Shown piece by piece: positions 324-18,638 of a stretch of 46,410 nt of DNA (positions are counted from its first letter, which is position 1; each line of letters opens with the position of its first letter). The stretch lies in IMG/VR virus record IMGVR_UViG_3300010376_000055, positions 1 through 46,410 of that record. The stretch is one strand, 5' to 3'. Origin of the DNA: a virus (lineage: Duplodnaviria > Caudoviricetes). Made by a program: the position numbers and the translations under genes. Under the pieces are notes generated by a model. It had not been told where the DNA came from, made no database searches, and saw nothing but the letters and a program-made list of their open reading frames with translations.

Positions 324-395
324 TAGAATAGGGGTGTCGGGTGCTCTAACACCCGGCTCACACCAACATCGGAGGCTAGTCCGATATGACACCCC
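324..395 (+). promoter_or_regulatory. -10 box plus structured leader of the HNH-AP2 gene
   Basis: TAGAAT at 324-329; AGGGGTGTCG pairs with TGACACCCCT spanning the ATG; GGTG-CTCTAA-CACC hairpin; ATCGGA/TCCGAT hairpin over the GGAGG SD. Confidence 0.55.
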
Positions 396-3504: not shown

Positions 3505-3747
3505 TGACCCTCCAAATAAAACCGGCGGCTGCATCATCACCGCCGGGTACTGCGCTGTACGGGCCTTGAACTCCGGCTACTCGTCGGCATACGTCTTAGC
3601 TCTTTCTCTAACGGATGCTCGCTAGTCCCTTGCGGGAGGCTCCTTCCAACGTATCTGAGGAGCGCAATCCTGCTCGAATTTCGCCTCAAGTGTCGTGTTT
3701 CTGCGGTACTTTGCAGGGAGGCCACGACTGCCCTCTCGGTGGAATCT

Positions 3748-3822
3748 TGGTTCCGGGGGCGGGACTCGAACCCGCGACCTGAGAGTTATGAGCCCTCCGC
3801 GCTGCCACTGCGCTACCCCGGT
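3748..3822 (-). tRNA. tRNA-Met(CAT), initiator (fMet)-like
   Basis: Full cloverleaf ACCGGGG TA GCGC AGTGGCA GCGC G GAGGG CTCATAA CTCTC AGGTC GCGGG TTCGAGT CCCGC CCCCGGA A CCA; A1xA72 mismatch, A73, GGG at 29-31, encoded CCA. Confidence 0.92.
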
Positions 3823-11648: not shown

Positions 11649-12394
11649 TGTTCACCTGCCGGGAACTGGTGAATCAAGAGATCGGCCGGAATGAGCTTCT
11701 TCCCGGCATTCGGAGTCAATCCCCCGAACTGCTTCATGAAGAACGGTATGTTTAACTCCTGGCACTCGGCCAACAGGTCACGAGCCCACTTCTCTTCCAT
11801 CGGCCTACGACCGTGTCCGCTCTCCCCTCCGAAGATGATCCAGTCGGGACGCATGGAGAGGTTGCGCATCGTAACCGGTCCGAGAGCTGGCTCGTAGCTT
11901 ACCCAGAACTTCAGCCCTCTTTCCATGGCGTCTGCGGCGACGATTGGCAAGCGGATGTCGTAGAACTTCTGATCCTCGCACGTTGTCCCCAGCCACACGT
12001 TGTCGAATACAAACGACTTGGGAAGATACCGGTGATACCGCTGAGGCCGCTTCGTGAGAAGCTGCCACGTCAGGCAGGGAGTCTCGAAGATCAACTGCCA
12101 CAGACGCTCTCGCGCCCCTTCCGGAGCTTCGTCGTCCATGATGTCGCACATCGATCCACAGAACACCCTATGCTGCTTACCGGTCTTCGAAGCCTCGTGG
12201 TTCCACTTCCGCGGTTCCTCCCAGTGCTTGAGTCCGAACGTCCTGCGAGGCGCTCCCTTGCCCCAGTGATCGCCGCCGACCCGCTTGTCGAATGTCTCCG
12301 CGTAGCAGTTGTCGCAGCCTGGGGACACTTTCGTACAACCCCACCAGGGGTTCCATGTACTATCAGTCCACGCTATCCCTGTGTTTTTACCCAC
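11645..12394 (-). CDS. Phage Gp37/Gp68 (DUF5131) radical-SAM-like protein
   Basis: IAWTDSTWNPWWGCTKVSPGCDNCYAE, LLTKRP, WIIFGGESG, FFMKQFG. Confidence 0.93.
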   Translation of the reverse strand: MGKNTGIAWTDSTWNPWWGCTKVSPGCDNCYAETFDKRVGGDHWGKGAPRRTFGLKHWEEPRKWNHEASKTGKQHRVFCGSMCDIMDDEAPEGARERLWQLIFETPCLTWQLLTKRPQRYHRYLPKSFVFDNVWLGTTCEDQKFYDIRLPIVAADAMERGLKFWVSYEPALGPVTMRNLSMRPDWIIFGGESGHGRRPMEEKWARDLLAECQELNIPFFMKQFGGLTPNAGKKLIPADLLIHQFPAGEQ

Positions 12395-12830
12395 GGTCGT
12401 GAATCTCCCTTTGATGGTGATAGTTGCAGAGAGTCACACCATTATCGACGTCGAATCGCAACTCTGGAAATTCAGCGTAACTCTTACAATGGTGAGCCTC
12501 AAGATTCCCGCCTCCGGTATATACGGTGCAGATCAGGCAGGTGAATGCATCGCGACTAAAAACCGCCAATCTCCAAGCTCTATACTCCGGCGTTCCACGG
12601 TCTCCCTGTCTCTTAACCTTTGTTCCACCCTTCCACGCATAATGAGACTCCCCTCTCTGCGTGGCCGACTTTGTCCTTTCGCTGATAATGGACCTAGTAT
12701 CAGCAGAGTGCCTTAGTCCGAGTCTGCTTCCCGGTAACCCGAGTTCGCGACGAAGAGCCCAGCCTGCGCGCATTCTAGCCTTTGCCTCGTCGGACATTTT
12801 CGAACCTTTTAACATGCGGTATCCGTCCAA
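12387..12830 (-). CDS. HNH endonuclease with NUMOD3-like N-terminus
   Basis: HSADTRSIISE, HYAWKGG, WRLAVFSRDAFTCLIC..LEAHH...RFDVDNGVTLCNYHH. Confidence 0.88.
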   Translation of the reverse strand: MDGYRMLKGSKMSDEAKARMRAGWALRRELGLPGSRLGLRHSADTRSIISERTKSATQRGESHYAWKGGTKVKRQGDRGTPEYRAWRLAVFSRDAFTCLICTVYTGGGNLEAHHCKSYAEFPELRFDVDNGVTLCNYHHQREIHDRG

Positions 12831-13049: not shown

Positions 13050-13300
13050 TGTTGCCTCGGGTCTACCCACCGGTTAACCGGCAAGGGGGTTGCGCACAGC
13101 ATCTCGATGTACGCCGCTCCCCGCTCGGTACATTCCCAGTCGTTCGGTCGAGCCTGATCCCGTGGTGCCTTGCATCGCAACAGTTCCAAGTATTCCAGCC
13201 GATCAAGTTCGCCCTCAGACACATCCGCACGAGCACTTGGAATCGCATAGAAAGAAATCAGCGACAAAATATCACCCGGCGTTACCACTCTCTCACTCAT
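13046..13300 (-). CDS. Hypothetical (winged-helix-like) protein, leaderless
   Basis: TTGGCA-17-TACTCT-6 nt-ATG; LEYLELL...WECTERG. Confidence 0.55.
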   Translation of the reverse strand: MSERVVTPGDILSLISFYAIPSARADVSEGELDRLEYLELLRCKAPRDQARPNDWECTERGAAYIEMLCATPLPVNRWVDPRQQ

Positions 13301-13359
13301 GTTGGCAGAGTACACCTGATTTGCAACAATGCCAAGTTGGTCCAAATTTTGGAGTATTC

Positions 13360-13750
13360 AGCCATAGGGACGGCCTTCCCTCGGGGATCTACCCCTAGAG
13401 TGGCCCTGAATTCTTAGTGTGTCTTACAGCTTCTTAAACCAGAGAGAGACTTAGTCTTTGAAAGAGGGGTTCTACGCCCTCATCCCCATGGGACCAGGAC
13501 GCAGCCGTCTGTGATGGGATCAACTACCCACTCGTTGCCTGGAATTTCGTCTCGTCTCAGCTTTATCGGTGCCAATGCCCGTAAGCTGTGAACCTCAAGC
13601 GGACCGTTGTTTTTCGGTAATGGAGTTCCGCGAACCAACCGTCTTGCCTCCGAAGGCAGGAATAGACACACGTTAGCGCGTCACTCGGAAGACGGGATGA
13701 TGTGCGTGATCTAACACGCTGCAAAATCCGTTCTCCCAGATTCCGTGACT
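13360..13750 (-). ncRNA. Candidate ~390-nt structured non-coding RNA
   Basis: TTGTCG-17-TATTCT promoter (13784-13756); no credible ORF; many hairpins (TGCCT-TCGG-AGGCA, CAGCTT/AAGCTG, CCAGG/CCTGG, GTTAG/CTAAC); 3' end uncertain. Confidence 0.5.
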
Positions 13751-13811
13751 TGCGCAGAATAAATCGTCAGATTTAATCCGACAATAGCAAAATGTGGACT
13801 ATAATTTTTTT

Positions 13812-13912
13812 GTGGGCGGCCCCGCCTACGCGCGCTGCTCCGGACCCGGGTTCCGTGACAAGTTCCCTTCCTGAGAGCCCGCCCACAAATCCCCGCGAAA
13901 GCGGGGTTTTTT
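13812..13912 (+). ncRNA. Candidate ~100-nt small RNA
   Basis: TATAAT at 13800-13805; closing stem GTGGGCGG/CCGCCCAC; terminator CCCCGC-GAAA-GCGGGG-TTTTTT. Confidence 0.65.
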
Positions 13913-14795
13913 ATTGCTCGGCCATTTGCAGGTTGGGATCCTCGATCGCTTCCAGAAACATATTCGATATGCGGACTCCGAACTCGTAGCGGGCTTGGAA
14001 GTATTTCGCGAGCCCTGGATTCCTTCCCTCGCCGTCCTTCGAATATGCGAAGCTGAGCGTCTTGAACAGGGGATACAGCAGGAACGGATCGGGGATCAGG
14101 AACCCGTCCCCCAGTCCCATCTTGCCTGGCTGGCGCTGCTGGTACACGAGCTCGATCGGCGTCGTGTTGTTCGCCCTCGGCCAAATCCCGAACTGGAGCA
14201 AGCCGGTCTTGTCGCGGAAGTACACCTTGGGCCCTACGGCGGCCTTCAGTTGCCAGCGGTAGTCCGTCATGTCGAGATTGGCCTGAGACGTTTCCCTCAG
14301 CGGGTAGTTGTTCACGGCCATGCGCTCCGGAACCATGCAGTCTGAGGGCAGATTGCCGTTCTGCGCAGTCGGCAGCACGGTGATATCCGCGATGTTGTAA
14401 ACCAGAGGGCAGGCCGTAAGGAAGTCGTTTACGGCCGTAGACAGGTATGTCAGCATTTCATCCTGAGTGAATATCTGGTCCTGATTGGCCCGGTAGGGGA
14501 ACGTGGCGCCGACGATCGGTTCGCCGGCTGGATGCGCGTTCACGAAAACAGCGGTGAACGAGGTCCCTGGAACCACAGCCGTAATCGTGACCACTTCAAG
14601 AGTGCTTACCGTGGTTCCCACGCAAAGCTGCGCGCCCACGTACATCGCTTCATCCCAAACCGGAACAGTCTGCGAACCGACTCCGATGCCGCCCACAGGA
14701 ACCGACTGGTTCACCGGATTCTGAATCAGCTTGTAGCTGGCATCCGTCAGGAGATCGTTTGCGATCAGGAATCCGACACCTTGAACGACTGGCAT
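13911..14795 (-). CDS. Head-tail adaptor / tail tubular A-like protein
   Basis: FTQDEMLTYLSTAVNDF, LPSDC, GPKVYF...FGIWP, IPDPF...AYSKDGE; leaderless-type start. Confidence 0.65.
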   Translation of the reverse strand: MPVVQGVGFLIANDLLTDASYKLIQNPVNQSVPVGGIGVGSQTVPVWDEAMYVGAQLCVGTTVSTLEVVTITAVVPGTSFTAVFVNAHPAGEPIVGATFPYRANQDQIFTQDEMLTYLSTAVNDFLTACPLVYNIADITVLPTAQNGNLPSDCMVPERMAVNNYPLRETSQANLDMTDYRWQLKAAVGPKVYFRDKTGLLQFGIWPRANNTTPIELVYQQRQPGKMGLGDGFLIPDPFLLYPLFKTLSFAYSKDGEGRNPGLAKYFQARYEFGVRISNMFLEAIEDPNLQMAEQ

Positions 14796-14833
14796 GCAAT
14801 CATTCTCAGCCGCTTGAGCTTAGGCGTCCACGA

Positions 14834-15123
14834 GAAAAGCCGCCCCAACCACTGGCGGCTCTTCCGAATACGACGGAGGAATCAATTAAAGCGACCATAG
14901 CACAAAAGCCATTCCCCGAATACTGGAATGGCTATCGTGCAGGTTTCCATCACCAAAGAAGTTACCAAGACTATAACATGAAAAGGCTGCTCGCCAACCA
15001 CTCGAGCAGCCTGTCTCCCTTTGATCACAGCATCGTTAAGTGGACTATAACACGAAAGCCGCCCAAGTTCTGAGCGGCCTTCGTTCCTCAAAGGAGTCGC
15101 AGTGTCAACCTGCCGAGATTGTA
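14834..15123 (-). repeat. Tandem array of four promoter/variable segment/terminator units (candidate sRNA cassette)
   Basis: -10 boxes at 15123, 15049, 14975 and 14899 (period 74, 74, 76), three with extended TG; each followed by 25-32 unique nt, then a GC hairpin and T-tract. Confidence 0.75.
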
Positions 15124-15600
15124 CTACGATCCGAACGCGAGCTTCACGCTCGAAAGAACCGGAACCGGAACCACGGGTGTAACTGTTACCGCCTGGGTGT
15201 CGCTGAAGGTCTTGCCGTCCGGCGTGGTCACCGTGCCAGTGATGTTCGCCGTGCCGGCTGCATCTGCGGTAACCGTCGCTGTGATGCCGTCCGCGTTCAG
15301 CGTTACTGCCGCGACCGCTGAATTGTCGGTTGAGTACGCATAAGTCGACCCTGCCGGGATTGCGATCGGAGACCCGTTCTGATCGAAACCCTGCAGTTCT
15401 GCCGTTGTCGTCTGGCCTGCGACCAGAGACGTGCCGCCCAATACAAACGTCATAATCCCTCGCTCATTGAATGGCCATGTCGGCCAAAATCGGTGTTGAA
15501 GGTAGGTCCTCGTCAGAAAGCTGAGCTTCACGCTCGCAAGCCGCTTCCTGTGATGGTGCCTCATAACTGCATTCTCTTCCTCAAATGCGAAATCTTCCAT
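15124..15600 (-). CDS. Ig-like (Big_2-type) domain protein
   Basis: YSTDNSAVAAV...ATVTADAAGTANITGTV; start uncertain (15600, 15564 or later). Confidence 0.7.
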   Translation of the reverse strand: MEDFAFEEENAVMRHHHRKRLASVKLSFLTRTYLQHRFWPTWPFNERGIMTFVLGGTSLVAGQTTTAELQGFDQNGSPIAIPAGSTYAYSTDNSAVAAVTLNADGITATVTADAAGTANITGTVTTPDGKTFSDTQAVTVTPVVPVPVLSSVKLAFGS

Positions 15601-15627
15601 GAATAATTAACCCTCCGCATGCGAGAA

Positions 15628-16371
15628 CTATACCGCAGTTCTTGGGTTTGGCTTGCCCTGCGCGCCGAAGGCTCCAGTAAAGATGAGGTCGTCCAGACGG
15701 CCCTGGAAGGCCGATAGGTCCTTGATGTCGTACATATACGACTTATAAACAATCTCCGCTTCCTCGGCCTCGGCTCCACCTTCCTTCGCGCGCAGCATCG
15801 CCGCGGCGTACTTCGGGAAGGCTGATGTGAACTCGTTCTGGAAGGGTACTCCCTCGTTGCCGGTGTACGGCCTGTACTCGTTGACCGGGCTCACGATGAA
15901 GTCCATCGTCACATCCGAGTCGATCGAGAGTTGGGGATAGATTCCGAACAGCGAGATGCCCAACGGGAACCACGCCTTAATCTGGGTTGCCGGGTCAGCC
16001 TGCTGCCAGCTCGGTGTCATGTTGTCGAGAGCCTTCATCGACGTCTTTCGGATCTGGTACGGCGCTCTCATCCGGATCGGCGCCAGCACGCCAAGCGGAA
16101 CGAGGTTTCCTCCGTATCCGCCGTCCCCATACCCTCCAGAGCCGTAACCGCCGCCGCCGGCCTGAATGTTGAACCAGGTGTTTCCGGCCGTAAGCGTCAC
16201 TCTCAGGCTCGCAAGCTGCACAACTCCGGTGACCATCGCAGCTTCGAACATCCCCCACACCAGCTCGGTGTACACTTCGCCAGTCAGGTTCCAAAAGATA
16301 GGGCCGGGCTGATCAGGACAATTCTCCTCTATTCTTCCAAGCACATCCGGCAAGAGCTGTGAAAGGATCAT
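15628..16371 (-). CDS. Head-tail adaptor / tail tubular A-like protein with GYG insert
   Basis: LFGIYP, VPFQNEF...YAAAMLRAKEG; resembles 13911-14795; GGGGYGSGGYGDGGYGG insert. Confidence 0.6.
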   Translation of the reverse strand: MILSQLLPDVLGRIEENCPDQPGPIFWNLTGEVYTELVWGMFEAAMVTGVVQLASLRVTLTAGNTWFNIQAGGGGYGSGGYGDGGYGGNLVPLGVLAPIRMRAPYQIRKTSMKALDNMTPSWQQADPATQIKAWFPLGISLFGIYPQLSIDSDVTMDFIVSPVNEYRPYTGNEGVPFQNEFTSAFPKYAAAMLRAKEGGAEAEEAEIVYKSYMYDIKDLSAFQGRLDDLIFTGAFGAQGKPNPRTAV

Positions 16372-16685: not shown

Positions 16686-18638
16686 TCAATGGTCAAGCGG
16701 GTGAGGGTACTGATAAGGAGTATACGTTGGAGTAGAAGGCCATCCGCTAGCTCCGCAGACATAGAGTACGCCCTGGCCACCGCTTCCGGAACTGTTCCAG
16801 CTTCCCTGATCTGTTGCCCAGTAAGCTACGCCCTGCGTGCAAGTCGACGGACGGGCCGCCAATGTTCCTGAGCCTGTTCCCGGTCCGGTGGACGGGTTTC
16901 CTGTGAACGTCCGCAGGTTTCCGGAATTATCTGTATCGCGGTAGAAGTCCCGGTTTTCTCCAATTAGGTTGGAGGTCGCATCGGTAAGTCCGACATTAAC
17001 TCCGCAATTTCCGCTTGGACAGGACCACGTGTTGCCCCATAGATAAATTGGCTCCGAGGCCTGATTGGGATACTGCACGACGCAGCTCCCGGTTCCGGCT
17101 GTATTCGAGTAAGAACACCTGGTTCCGCCACTTACGCAGCCGCCGGGATAACTTCCGCTGAGAAGCCAACCCGCACCGCGGCCTGGTTGATCGAGAACTG
17201 GATAGCCCTCTGTGTTTGTGTTTCCATCCCACGGGCTCGGTACGCTAGCATAGTCCGATCTGCGGACATCCGGAAGGAACAGGTTGTTGATCGCCGTCGT
17301 GCCGTTGTACATGAAACCCTGGCTCGAGCTTCCGCAGAGATCGTAGTTGGTTGCGCCATTGAAATGATCATTCACTAAGTCCAAAAAGTTCTTCCAGCCA
17401 GCCGAACCCGATGGCGCCGCGTTGTTGTTGAAGATCAGCGCCGTTCCTCCGGTGATGAAGTCCACATTGTATGAAGGGTTTCCGCTCCCTGAATCAAATA
17501 TTCCGGTGAAGGTATTGTTGTAGATTTCCATCGCGCGGCCCGACCGTCCGGAGCCGTTTCCGGATCCTGTCGCATGAACCTGAAGGCTTCCGGAAGTGGA
17601 GTTGTTGAAGCGAACAACCATCCTTCCGCCGAGCCAAAGGTCATTGATAAAGCCGTTCCAGAAGTCTGCAACAAAGGTGTTATTTTCGAGGTACAGGTAT
17701 TCATTCGTTCCAAAATCCGGACCATGCGACCAAGCTTGATCTCCCTGGCCTCCACTGTCCCCAAAGCATTTGCCCGTTAGCTCACGAACCGCATTTCCAG
17801 TTCCGTGCGTCTTGTAGATACCGTGATCAACGGAACCCCAGATGCAGTCGCCCATATTCGCAAGAGTCGCGTTGCCGTTACTGGTCGCTGGATTGTAAGT
17901 CGTCTGATCTAAGGTGACGTGGTCAAGACGGAAGTTCGAAGACAATCCGTTGATCGAAAGCATGCCGTTATACTTGGCATTGTTGTCAGGGAGAGAAGAA
18001 TCTCCCTCAAAGGTAATGCCGGCCATTCTGTATGTCGTGCTTGAGGACCCAGTGGTGACTTCAAAGATCGGGTTGTTGTTCGCTACATCATCCTTGATCA
18101 CCGTCTGATTGTTTCCTCCGGGTATCGTAAGGCTGCCAGCTCCCAGGACCGAAAGGTTTGTGTTTCCGGAAGGAACATCGCAGGTAACGTTCGTCGTCCA
18201 TGAAACTCCTCCGGTACAGGCCGGAATCTGCAGTACCGTCGTCGTGTTCGTCAGAAGATTGCAGGCGGCCTGCACATCGGATGCCGAGCAGCTCGCGGCT
18301 GTCACCGTGGTCCCCGAGGCGAACGTGGCCGTAACCGTAGAAGTCCCAGAGATCGAGAACGAGCACGAACCAGTACCGCTACAGTTTCCGCTCCAGCCAG
18401 TGAACGTGGATCCGGAGTTCGGCGTCTCCGAACACGTGACCGTTGTCCCAGCCGCAAGCGTGGTTGTCCCTGTCGCGCAATTCGCCACGTTGTTGATTGT
18501 TCCGCTTCCCGATCCGGCAGTGTTGACCGTCAGGCTATAGAGAACCGTTCCGGCCGCAAGGGCCCCAGTGTGCCCGGGAGACTGCACTTGCGCGAACGCC
18601 GTAACTGAGAGAAGAGCCCAGAGAATTGCAAGTCTCAT
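16686..18638 (-). CDS. Signal-peptide protein with InlB B-repeat and pectin-lyase-like beta-helix
   Basis: MRLAILWALLSVTAFAQ signal; PNSGSTFTGWSGNCSGTGSC B-repeat; YLENNTF, VVRFN, EIYNNTF beta-helix rungs; ATGA-coupled. Confidence 0.75.
   Translation of the reverse strand: MRLAILWALLSVTAFAQVQSPGHTGALAAGTVLYSLTVNTAGSGSGTINNVANCATGTTTLAAGTTVTCSETPNSGSTFTGWSGNCSGTGSCSFSISGTSTVTATFASGTTVTAASCSASDVQAACNLLTNTTTVLQIPACTGGVSWTTNVTCDVPSGNTNLSVLGAGSLTIPGGNNQTVIKDDVANNNPIFEVTTGSSSTTYRMAGITFEGDSSLPDNNAKYNGMLSINGLSSNFRLDHVTLDQTTYNPATSNGNATLANMGDCIWGSVDHGIYKTHGTGNAVRELTGKCFGDSGGQGDQAWSHGPDFGTNEYLYLENNTFVADFWNGFINDLWLGGRMVVRFNNSTSGSLQVHATGSGNGSGRSGRAMEIYNNTFTGIFDSGSGNPSYNVDFITGGTALIFNNNAAPSGSAGWKNFLDLVNDHFNGATNYDLCGSSSQGFMYNGTTAINNLFLPDVRRSDYASVPSPWDGNTNTEGYPVLDQPGRGAGWLLSGSYPGGCVSGGTRCSYSNTAGTGSCVVQYPNQASEPIYLWGNTWSCPSGNCGVNVGLTDATSNLIGENRDFYRDTDNSGNLRTFTGNPSTGPGTGSGTLAARPSTCTQGVAYWATDQGSWNSSGSGGQGVLYVCGASGWPSTPTYTPYQYPHPLDH

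Follow-up and report, generated by a model that had tools for sequence, protein, structure and literature searches.

The minus strand of the DNA analysed here (46,410 nt, hereafter the window) carries a tandem array of four short units which, judging from its regular layout, is a real element that appears to be under selection. We see roughly even chances that the array encodes four separately transcribed, trans-acting base-pairing small RNAs (sRNAs) of about 53-60 nt. The array and an Ig-domain gene together occupy a moron slot that is flanked on either side by a head-tail adaptor gene. The features of the region, with promoter elements as read from the sequence, are as follows (units numbered U0 to U3).

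15628-16371, minus strand: conserved structural-region gene of the upstream flank, probably adaptor-like judging by position
15627-15632, minus strand: -10 box TATAGT, putative moron promoter, which overlaps the stop codon of the upstream flanking gene
15124-15600, minus strand: structural protein with an Ig domain, 158 aa (109 aa if started at 15453), phrog_215 (E 6e-5)
15118-15123, minus strand: U0 -10 box TACAAT, not TG-extended, abutting the stop codon of the Ig gene
15055-15111, minus strand: U0 predicted RNA of ~57 nt (5' segment 15111-15080, hairpin 15079-15057, short T tail)
15044-15052, minus strand: U1 extended -10, TG-T-TATAGT
14981-15037, minus strand: U1 predicted RNA of ~57 nt (5' segment 15037-15013, hairpin 15012-14984)
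14970-14978, minus strand: U2 extended -10, TG-T-TATAGT
14904-14963, minus strand: U2 predicted RNA of ~60 nt (5' segment 14963-14934, 9-bp hairpin 14933-14907)
14894-14902, minus strand: U3 extended -10, TG-C-TATGGT
14835-14887, minus strand: U3 predicted RNA of ~53 nt (5' segment 14887-14861, 7-bp hairpin 14860-14838)
14802-14830, minus strand: family-conserved promoter TGGACG-17-GAGAAT, 6 nt before the adaptor ATG (leaderless)
13911-14795, minus strand: 294-aa gene for the head-tail adaptor-like protein of the downstream flank (225 relatives; PF24175)

An earlier sequence-only reading of this DNA had described four minus-strand units with a 74/74/76-nt period, and this description is confirmed: the -10 boxes start at 15123 (TACAAT), 15049 (TATAGT), 14975 (TATAGT) and 14899 (TATGGT). 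The boxes of U1-U3, not that of U0, have an extended TG-n motif upstream, and every box is followed by 6 nt and then an A (15111, 15037, 14963 and 14887 for U0-U3). The unique 5' segments measure 32, 25, 30 and 27 nt, and the hairpins (15079-15057, 15012-14984, 14933-14907 and 14860-14838) contain 9, 10, 9 and 7 pairs; their T tails comprise just 3-4 T, so that read-through is likely. Each of the four units thus has, by sequence, its own promoter and its own terminator, and at the three junctions within the array the terminator stem-loop overlaps a sigma-70-type promoter. The earlier reading placed each terminator in the -35 region of the next promoter; the distance from the loop to the following -10 is 13, 18 and 16 nt, which is too variable for a fixed -35 element. 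A TTGGCG inside the U1 hairpin is found 16 nt upstream of the U2 extended -10. The 5' segment of U1 has a purine-rich end and is followed by a 10-bp hairpin with a 9-nt loop, and that of U2 is predicted to be mostly unpaired, with a U-rich start. The promoter of U0 is the weakest of the four and sits behind the stop codon of the Ig-domain gene; given this poor promoter, the U0 RNA could derive from the 3' end of the Ig-gene mRNA. No ORF with a Shine-Dalgarno sequence (SD) is present inside any unit, and small ORFs within the units were for that reason rejected as genes. A TTGACA in U0 was likewise rejected as a promoter element, as it has no -10 partner.

In 2000 dinucleotide shuffles of positions 14826-15130 we obtained at most two terminators and at most one promoter-terminator unit, against four of each in the actual sequence. 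Our script located 12 sites with a hairpin followed by TTT in the whole 46-kb window, 4 of which are the array hairpins; a terminator scan tool flagged U1 alone, and other terminators of the phage are equally short in the T tail. The folding z-scores of the four predicted RNAs are -2.9, -1.8, -2.1 and -1.6. When U1-U3 are placed in loop register, all 21 pairs over 7 positions are Watson-Crick while 6 of the 7 positions vary between units, which bears out the earlier observation that the stems vary in sequence yet stay paired. What had been called a constant 3' hairpin keeps its shape and its loop while its sequence differs between units: no more than two of the six hairpin pairs align above shuffles (H0-H3, p 0.002; H1-H3, p 0.04). 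The same is true of one pair of 5' segments (V0-V2, p 0.037), the other five of the six being no better than shuffles, and the four copies as a whole are too divergent for a good alignment. Despite this heavy divergence, no stem or -10 box in the array has decayed. The loop motif AG-nnn-TYGG is present in all four hairpins (shifted and partly paired in U0) and in 0 of 379 distinct terminator-like hairpins of relatives, a count to be read with the caveat that the motif had been derived from the array.

The window, a linear record, is estimated to represent 48% of the complete genome. The phage is a member of a ~100-kb soil phage family, the complete relatives of which measure 97-108 kb, and the runs in which window DNA occurs are soil metagenomes. 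Nearly all genes of the window lie on the minus strand; they include those for the terminase, a P22/SU10-like portal, the capsid and an internal virion protein, as well as four homing-endonuclease genes, peptide deformylase, glycosyltransferases and tRNA-Met. The nearest cultured counterparts of the capsid are 25-31% identical. Neither the adaptor nor the beta-helix protein of the phage was found in GTDB genomes; in an Atlas look-up with the ORF at 16686-18638, Acidobacteriota was the commonest phylum in two of the three top clusters, a weak lead by which the host is possibly a member of the Acidobacteriota. One Logan contig covers the array region with zero differences and is possibly the source of the window DNA; a second run gave zero cover over the array.

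PF24175 is the precomputed family assignment of most of the listed relatives of the downstream adaptor-like protein. The two flanking adaptor genes are directly adjacent in several relatives and separated by other inserts in others, which identifies the space between them as a moron insertion site. A conserved TAGAC-17-GARAAT promoter is predicted to restart transcription behind the inserts, and in 6 of 10 distinct promoters of this type, the window copy included, the ATG is located exactly 6 nt past the box; this spacing of leaderless genes supports a transcription start at +7 in the array units. Relatives of the Ig-domain protein are ordinary Ig-like proteins; the gene gave no tblastn match in 21 relatives, and no locus for it was found in IMG/VR. 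An 18-nt direct repeat (94% identity; 15139-15156 and 15523-15540) lies near both ends of the Ig ORF and codes for SVKL twice.

The array is a singleton in sequence, and its layout recurs singly or in tandem in relatives. Search of the whole window against Rfam at the gathering threshold returned only tRNA-Met, and lowering the stringency to E 10 for positions 13300-15700 yielded three weak matches, all outside the array. A BlastN search with the array as query gave a best E of 4 in INPHARED and PLSDB. Four IMG/VR pattern scans retrieved 28, 8, 37 and at least 120 stretches (about 170 estimated for the last), and folding and stem tests detected no hairpin array of this kind among the matches listed; locus L092 was rejected as an array, since it repeats an unrelated hairpin-promoter exactly and in tandem. 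Searching 3.64 Mb of family loci (overlaps included) yielded no sequence homologue of the array; relatives whose loci include upstream sequence showed no array in the corresponding slot, and 21 whole relative records likewise gave none. Within these 3.64 Mb, L037 (5880-6160, minus strand) is the only place where extended -10 boxes separate terminators in tandem; here a terminator is followed by two units with a period of 68 and then by a leaderless gene; six other tandem hairpin pairs in the family loci were not scored as units by the detector. The L037 units consist of TGC-TATACT or TGC-TATAAT, 6 nt, A, 21 or 19 nt, a hairpin and a T run. A TTGACA-5-TGTCAA palindrome is located upstream of this tandem, with leaderless genes downstream. 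Single units were found at L030, L131 and L450, and L047/L050 contain diverged homologous units that retain promoter and paired stem along with a portion of the 5' segment. Altogether a strict detector identified 15 distinct units in relatives, 9 of which start with A, although some of the 15 are probably due to chance.

The earlier proposal of four self-contained small-RNA genes holds as the best, still predicted, reading, with intact promoters and terminators and a layout shared with relatives. We favor it because promoter and terminator are intact in 4 of 4 units, whose cargo is non-coding and about as long as a seed. A stack of promoters would need no terminators, because the next gene has its own promoter, and a bare stack of terminators would not require promoters. 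In the sRNA reading, the host sigma-70 polymerase would start at the A located 7 nt after each -10 box, and transcription would end, at least partly, at each hairpin, the T tail of which runs into the next promoter. The unique 5' segment is predicted to be the base-pairing seed, and the 3' hairpin with its U tail would serve as terminator and stabilising scaffold. The seeds of U3 and U0, which complement an SD, spacer and start codon, may block ribosome loading on particular host mRNAs, whereas U1 and U2 could pair with coding or 5'-UTR sites or act as anti-sRNAs mimicking mRNA, the weakest part of the proposal. Because the AG-nnn-TYGG loop is shared and the seeds are unrelated, a single mini-gene was likely duplicated in tandem to give the units, the seeds of which then diverged.

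The complement of the U0 segment reads as the SD AAAGGAG, 5 nt and GTG, and nucleotides 2-13 of U3 are the complement of an SD region ending in GGAGG-AATCA-AT (5-nt spacer), so that in both cases the SD-to-start spacing in the complement is correct. In U3 these nucleotides are predicted to be mostly exposed, and in U0 the anti-SD is predicted to be fully paired in a small hairpin of its own. Anti-SD pentamers are thus present in two of the four segments against an expectation of 0.06 (p about 0.001, post hoc); U1 and U2 contain none, and no segment has an SD pentamer on the sense strand. The complement of the L030 segment reads AGGAGG-7 nt-GTG, and among the 15 unfiltered units of relatives an anti-SD pentamer is found in 3 (expected 0.95, p about 0.05). 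Nucleotides 2-13 of U3 also match real gene starts, GGAGGAATCAATG, in two relatives (L055/L064 and L134). Target searches were negative: the longest exact matches within the window (10-12 nt) are within shuffles, a gapless G-U-aware scan of the window and 21 relatives placed everything within 15 shuffles, and a duplex scan, together with 51 own gene starts, yielded no target beyond shuffles. The description of the segments as guide-like or targeting is accordingly not borne out in the window or the 21 relatives. A 16-nt match in G017 across the U0 start is sense to a capsid gene (E 0.24-0.5) and was taken as chance. Against the sRNA reading stand these negative searches, the short T tails, the absence of anti-SD pentamers from U1 and U2, the weak replication of the anti-SD in relatives, the self-pairing of the U0 anti-SD, and the occurrence of the terminator-promoter junction in front of leaderless ORFs at L030 and L037, as in the PeSL cassettes discussed below.

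Phage sRNAs with known targets are few and come mostly from enterobacterial prophages. The closest resemblance, as far as the accessible parts of the papers cited here extend, is to the AgvB/AsxR class, the 'anti-sRNAs' of lambdoid E. coli prophages, which are 51-60 nt long, owe their specificity to a variable 5' end, have a conserved 3' part and occupy a moron site (Tree et al. 2014, PMC4104026). The array RNAs are similarly predicted to be 53-60 nt long, with a variable 5' portion and a 3' Rho-independent terminator, and lie in a moron slot; this match in size, design and position supports the sRNA reading. In the AgvB/AsxR class, however, about 42 nt at the 3' end are conserved in sequence and 14-18 nt make up the 5' part, whereas the array conserves hairpin shape and loop, with 5' segments of 25-32 nt; and the former genes are dispersed over prophages in convergent pairs, unlike the four head-to-tail units with overlapping promoter and terminator. 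The AgvB/AsxR 3' sequence has no counterpart in the array by Rfam match or similarity to INPHARED DNA, and the hairpins diverge within the array itself. By this comparison, the array resembles the AgvB/AsxR class without being a member of it by sequence. Tandem arrangement, ~60-nt RNAs and a promoter for each copy are shared with the NsiR1 array of Nostoc PCC 7120, and divergent tandem sibling sRNA copies can differ in their targets (PMC9045159). The NsiR1 copies, in the account available, are identical or nearly so and chromosomal, in contrast to the phage-borne array with its unrelated 5' segments (5 of 6 pairs). PreS of lambda (~88 nt) and VpdS of VP882 (~50 nt) are trans-acting phage sRNAs whose pairing with host or phage mRNAs involves Hfq (PMC12197685); these are single genes with known targets, as opposed to four units. 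The accessible text of that phage sRNA review mentions neither 'tandem' nor 'array', and our literature search, outside of which most subscription papers and supplements fell, found no phage array of unrelated seeds. The statement that the array is not a described element was too strong all the same, given that prophage sRNAs, NsiR1 tandem arrays and PeSL cassettes are in print.

PeSLs provide the main rival explanation. In T4-type phages these cassettes, in which a stem-loop terminator overlaps a sigma-70-type promoter, recur within a variable region, and in the published portions at hand they are stem-loop and promoter cassettes that shuffle small ORFs (PMC2839356, PMC4122927). The array could consist of gene-less PeSL-like terminator-promoter cassettes, each of a kind that would normally front a small leaderless gene, here duplicated or having lost their cargo, with transcripts that are by-products, serve insulation or are relics; we regard this as unlikely, yet deserving serious weight. 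The repeated overlap of terminator and promoter is common to both, and relatives have the junction before small genes: in L030 and L037 the hairpin, T run, -10 and 6 nt lead to ATG genes. The slot is moreover an insertion hot spot, and the target searches in the window and 21 relatives gave nothing above shuffles. However, PeSLs as described there end in an SD and start codon, absent from the array units, and rely on recombinable shared sequence, whereas the array has non-coding cargo and little shared sequence, its junctions being too dissimilar for homologous shuffling (4 of the 6 hairpin pairs no better than shuffles). The tight segment length of 25-32 nt, the A at +7 in 4 of 4 units and the intact stems and -10 boxes also speak for the sRNA reading over this one.

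A second, rather improbable explanation is that the RNAs bind a protein through the AG-nnn-UYGG loop or the U tail, as decoys (of Hfq, ProQ or a Csr-type protein) or as protein-loaded guides. It draws on the presence of the loop in all four hairpins while the stems diverged, at no constant distance from the next -10 and with no occurrence among 379 other family terminators, on the single GGA in each of the four 5' segments (joint p 0.03, post hoc), and on the incompleteness of the genome, in the missing part of which a partner gene could lie. Yet recent duplication suffices to explain the shared loops, the L037 units lack the loop, and a single GGA per RNA would be a poor design for a Csr sponge. 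No RNA-binding, Cas, Argonaute or TnpB family is represented among the 60 window ORFs, and a complete relative with a Ro60/TROVE gene has no array; nothing supports protein-loaded guides.

Self-regulation, in which the RNAs would silence genes of their own or of related phages, for example U3 acting on the HNH gene starting at 12830, is still less probable. U3 nucleotides 1-11 form an unbroken duplex across the SD and TTG of ORF 12387-12830 (-23.4 kcal/mol), the best start for U3 among the 51 window gene starts, the U3 seed matches the L055/L064 and L134 gene starts, and about half of the genome is unseen. On the other hand, this pairing does not exceed shuffles (p 0.06-0.12; 0.21-0.36 when the anti-SD is kept fixed) and does not rank among the eight best duplexes across the genome; for U0 and U1 none of the 51 starts stands out as a target, and the best own start of U2 (p 0.01) is a loose duplex in 1 of 12 tests. 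The idea of four RNAs for four HNH genes was rejected, U3-12830 being the only such pairing and not significant.

Racr is a phage RNA anti-CRISPR. Such RNAs exist in phages (10.64898/2026.06.03.729762, accessible part), and the size of the units and their outline of a variable segment and a hairpin are crRNA-like, but a CRISPR-related reading as a mini-array or crRNA mimics is largely refuted, in agreement with the earlier reading, since there is no constant-sequence repeat and no Rfam CRISPR-repeat match even at E 10, each unit has a promoter and terminator, no cas gene occurs among the 60 window ORFs, and no protospacer-like match was detected (best E 4 in INPHARED/PLSDB and 0.24 in relatives).

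Several other elements of the window and its relatives were noticed. A fifth candidate non-coding RNA (13812-13915, plus strand) is convergent on the adaptor gene, with a TATAAT ending at 13805; its ends pair into a long stem, behind which comes a strong terminator whose T run counts 6 T (z -3.2, 0 of 200 shuffles). It matched no Rfam family at threshold and has no homologue in relatives. A stretch of about 200 nt at 13446-13640, where genes are sparse and small ORFs and an HNH gene follow downstream, is 70% identical to G002 (E 4e-11) and is a candidate for a structured RNA or for a 63-aa ORF (13480-13671). At 3513-3820 (minus strand), tRNA-Met (CAT) is followed by ~230 nt up to a terminator; the region is 69% identical to G003 (E 2e-31), and a conserved non-coding RNA behind the tRNA is possible. 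Two HNH genes (325-395, plus strand, and 4660-4590, minus strand) have a common leader, TTAGAATA-GGGTGTC ... ATGACACCC, the 5' end of which can pair over the start codon, so that cis translational repression of homing endonucleases is probable.

The near-palindrome TCCAAA(A/T)TTTGGA (13-15 bp, mostly intergenic) occurs in the window at 1768, 13341, 26094 and 37431, at up to 9 copies per 20 kb in close relatives and directly upstream of the L047 and L050 units, and none was seen in more distant relatives; it is likely an operator or a recombination site. The complete relative G001 encodes a Ro60/TROVE protein (L128:14415-15767) and an Acb2/Tad1-type anti-defence protein (L128:10223-10603). In a more distant clade, a conserved promoter-RNA-terminator unit lies antisense to the capsid region (L420 ~2738, minus strand; also L421, L424, L426, L427, L430, L432, L440 and L449), and its middle complements the sequence just upstream of its own -10.

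If the sRNAs are expressed and pair with different host RNAs, a ~100-kb soil phage stacks unrelated seeds on a minimal scaffold, and at about 75 bp per gene this would be the smallest layout with terminator and next promoter overlapping. If the units are instead empty PeSL-like cassettes, the finding is an ordinary one. A long shot among the possible elaborations of the sRNA reading is an expandable multiplex silencing cassette, in which a scaffold of extended -10, A at +1, free seed and hairpin is duplicated and re-seeded and a dedicated protein of the host or the phage recognises the AG-nnn-UYGG loop. Each unit would then shut off a different host defence or regulatory RNA, and the array would be a natural programmable RNA-silencing array without CRISPR or Hfq ancestry. 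The U0 seed implies a target start of SD, 5 nt and GTG, followed by Ser-Thr, and the U3 seed implies GGAGGAATCAAT. These two seeds complementary to ribosome-binding sites are exact search strings for host genes and could reveal defence genes and name the host.
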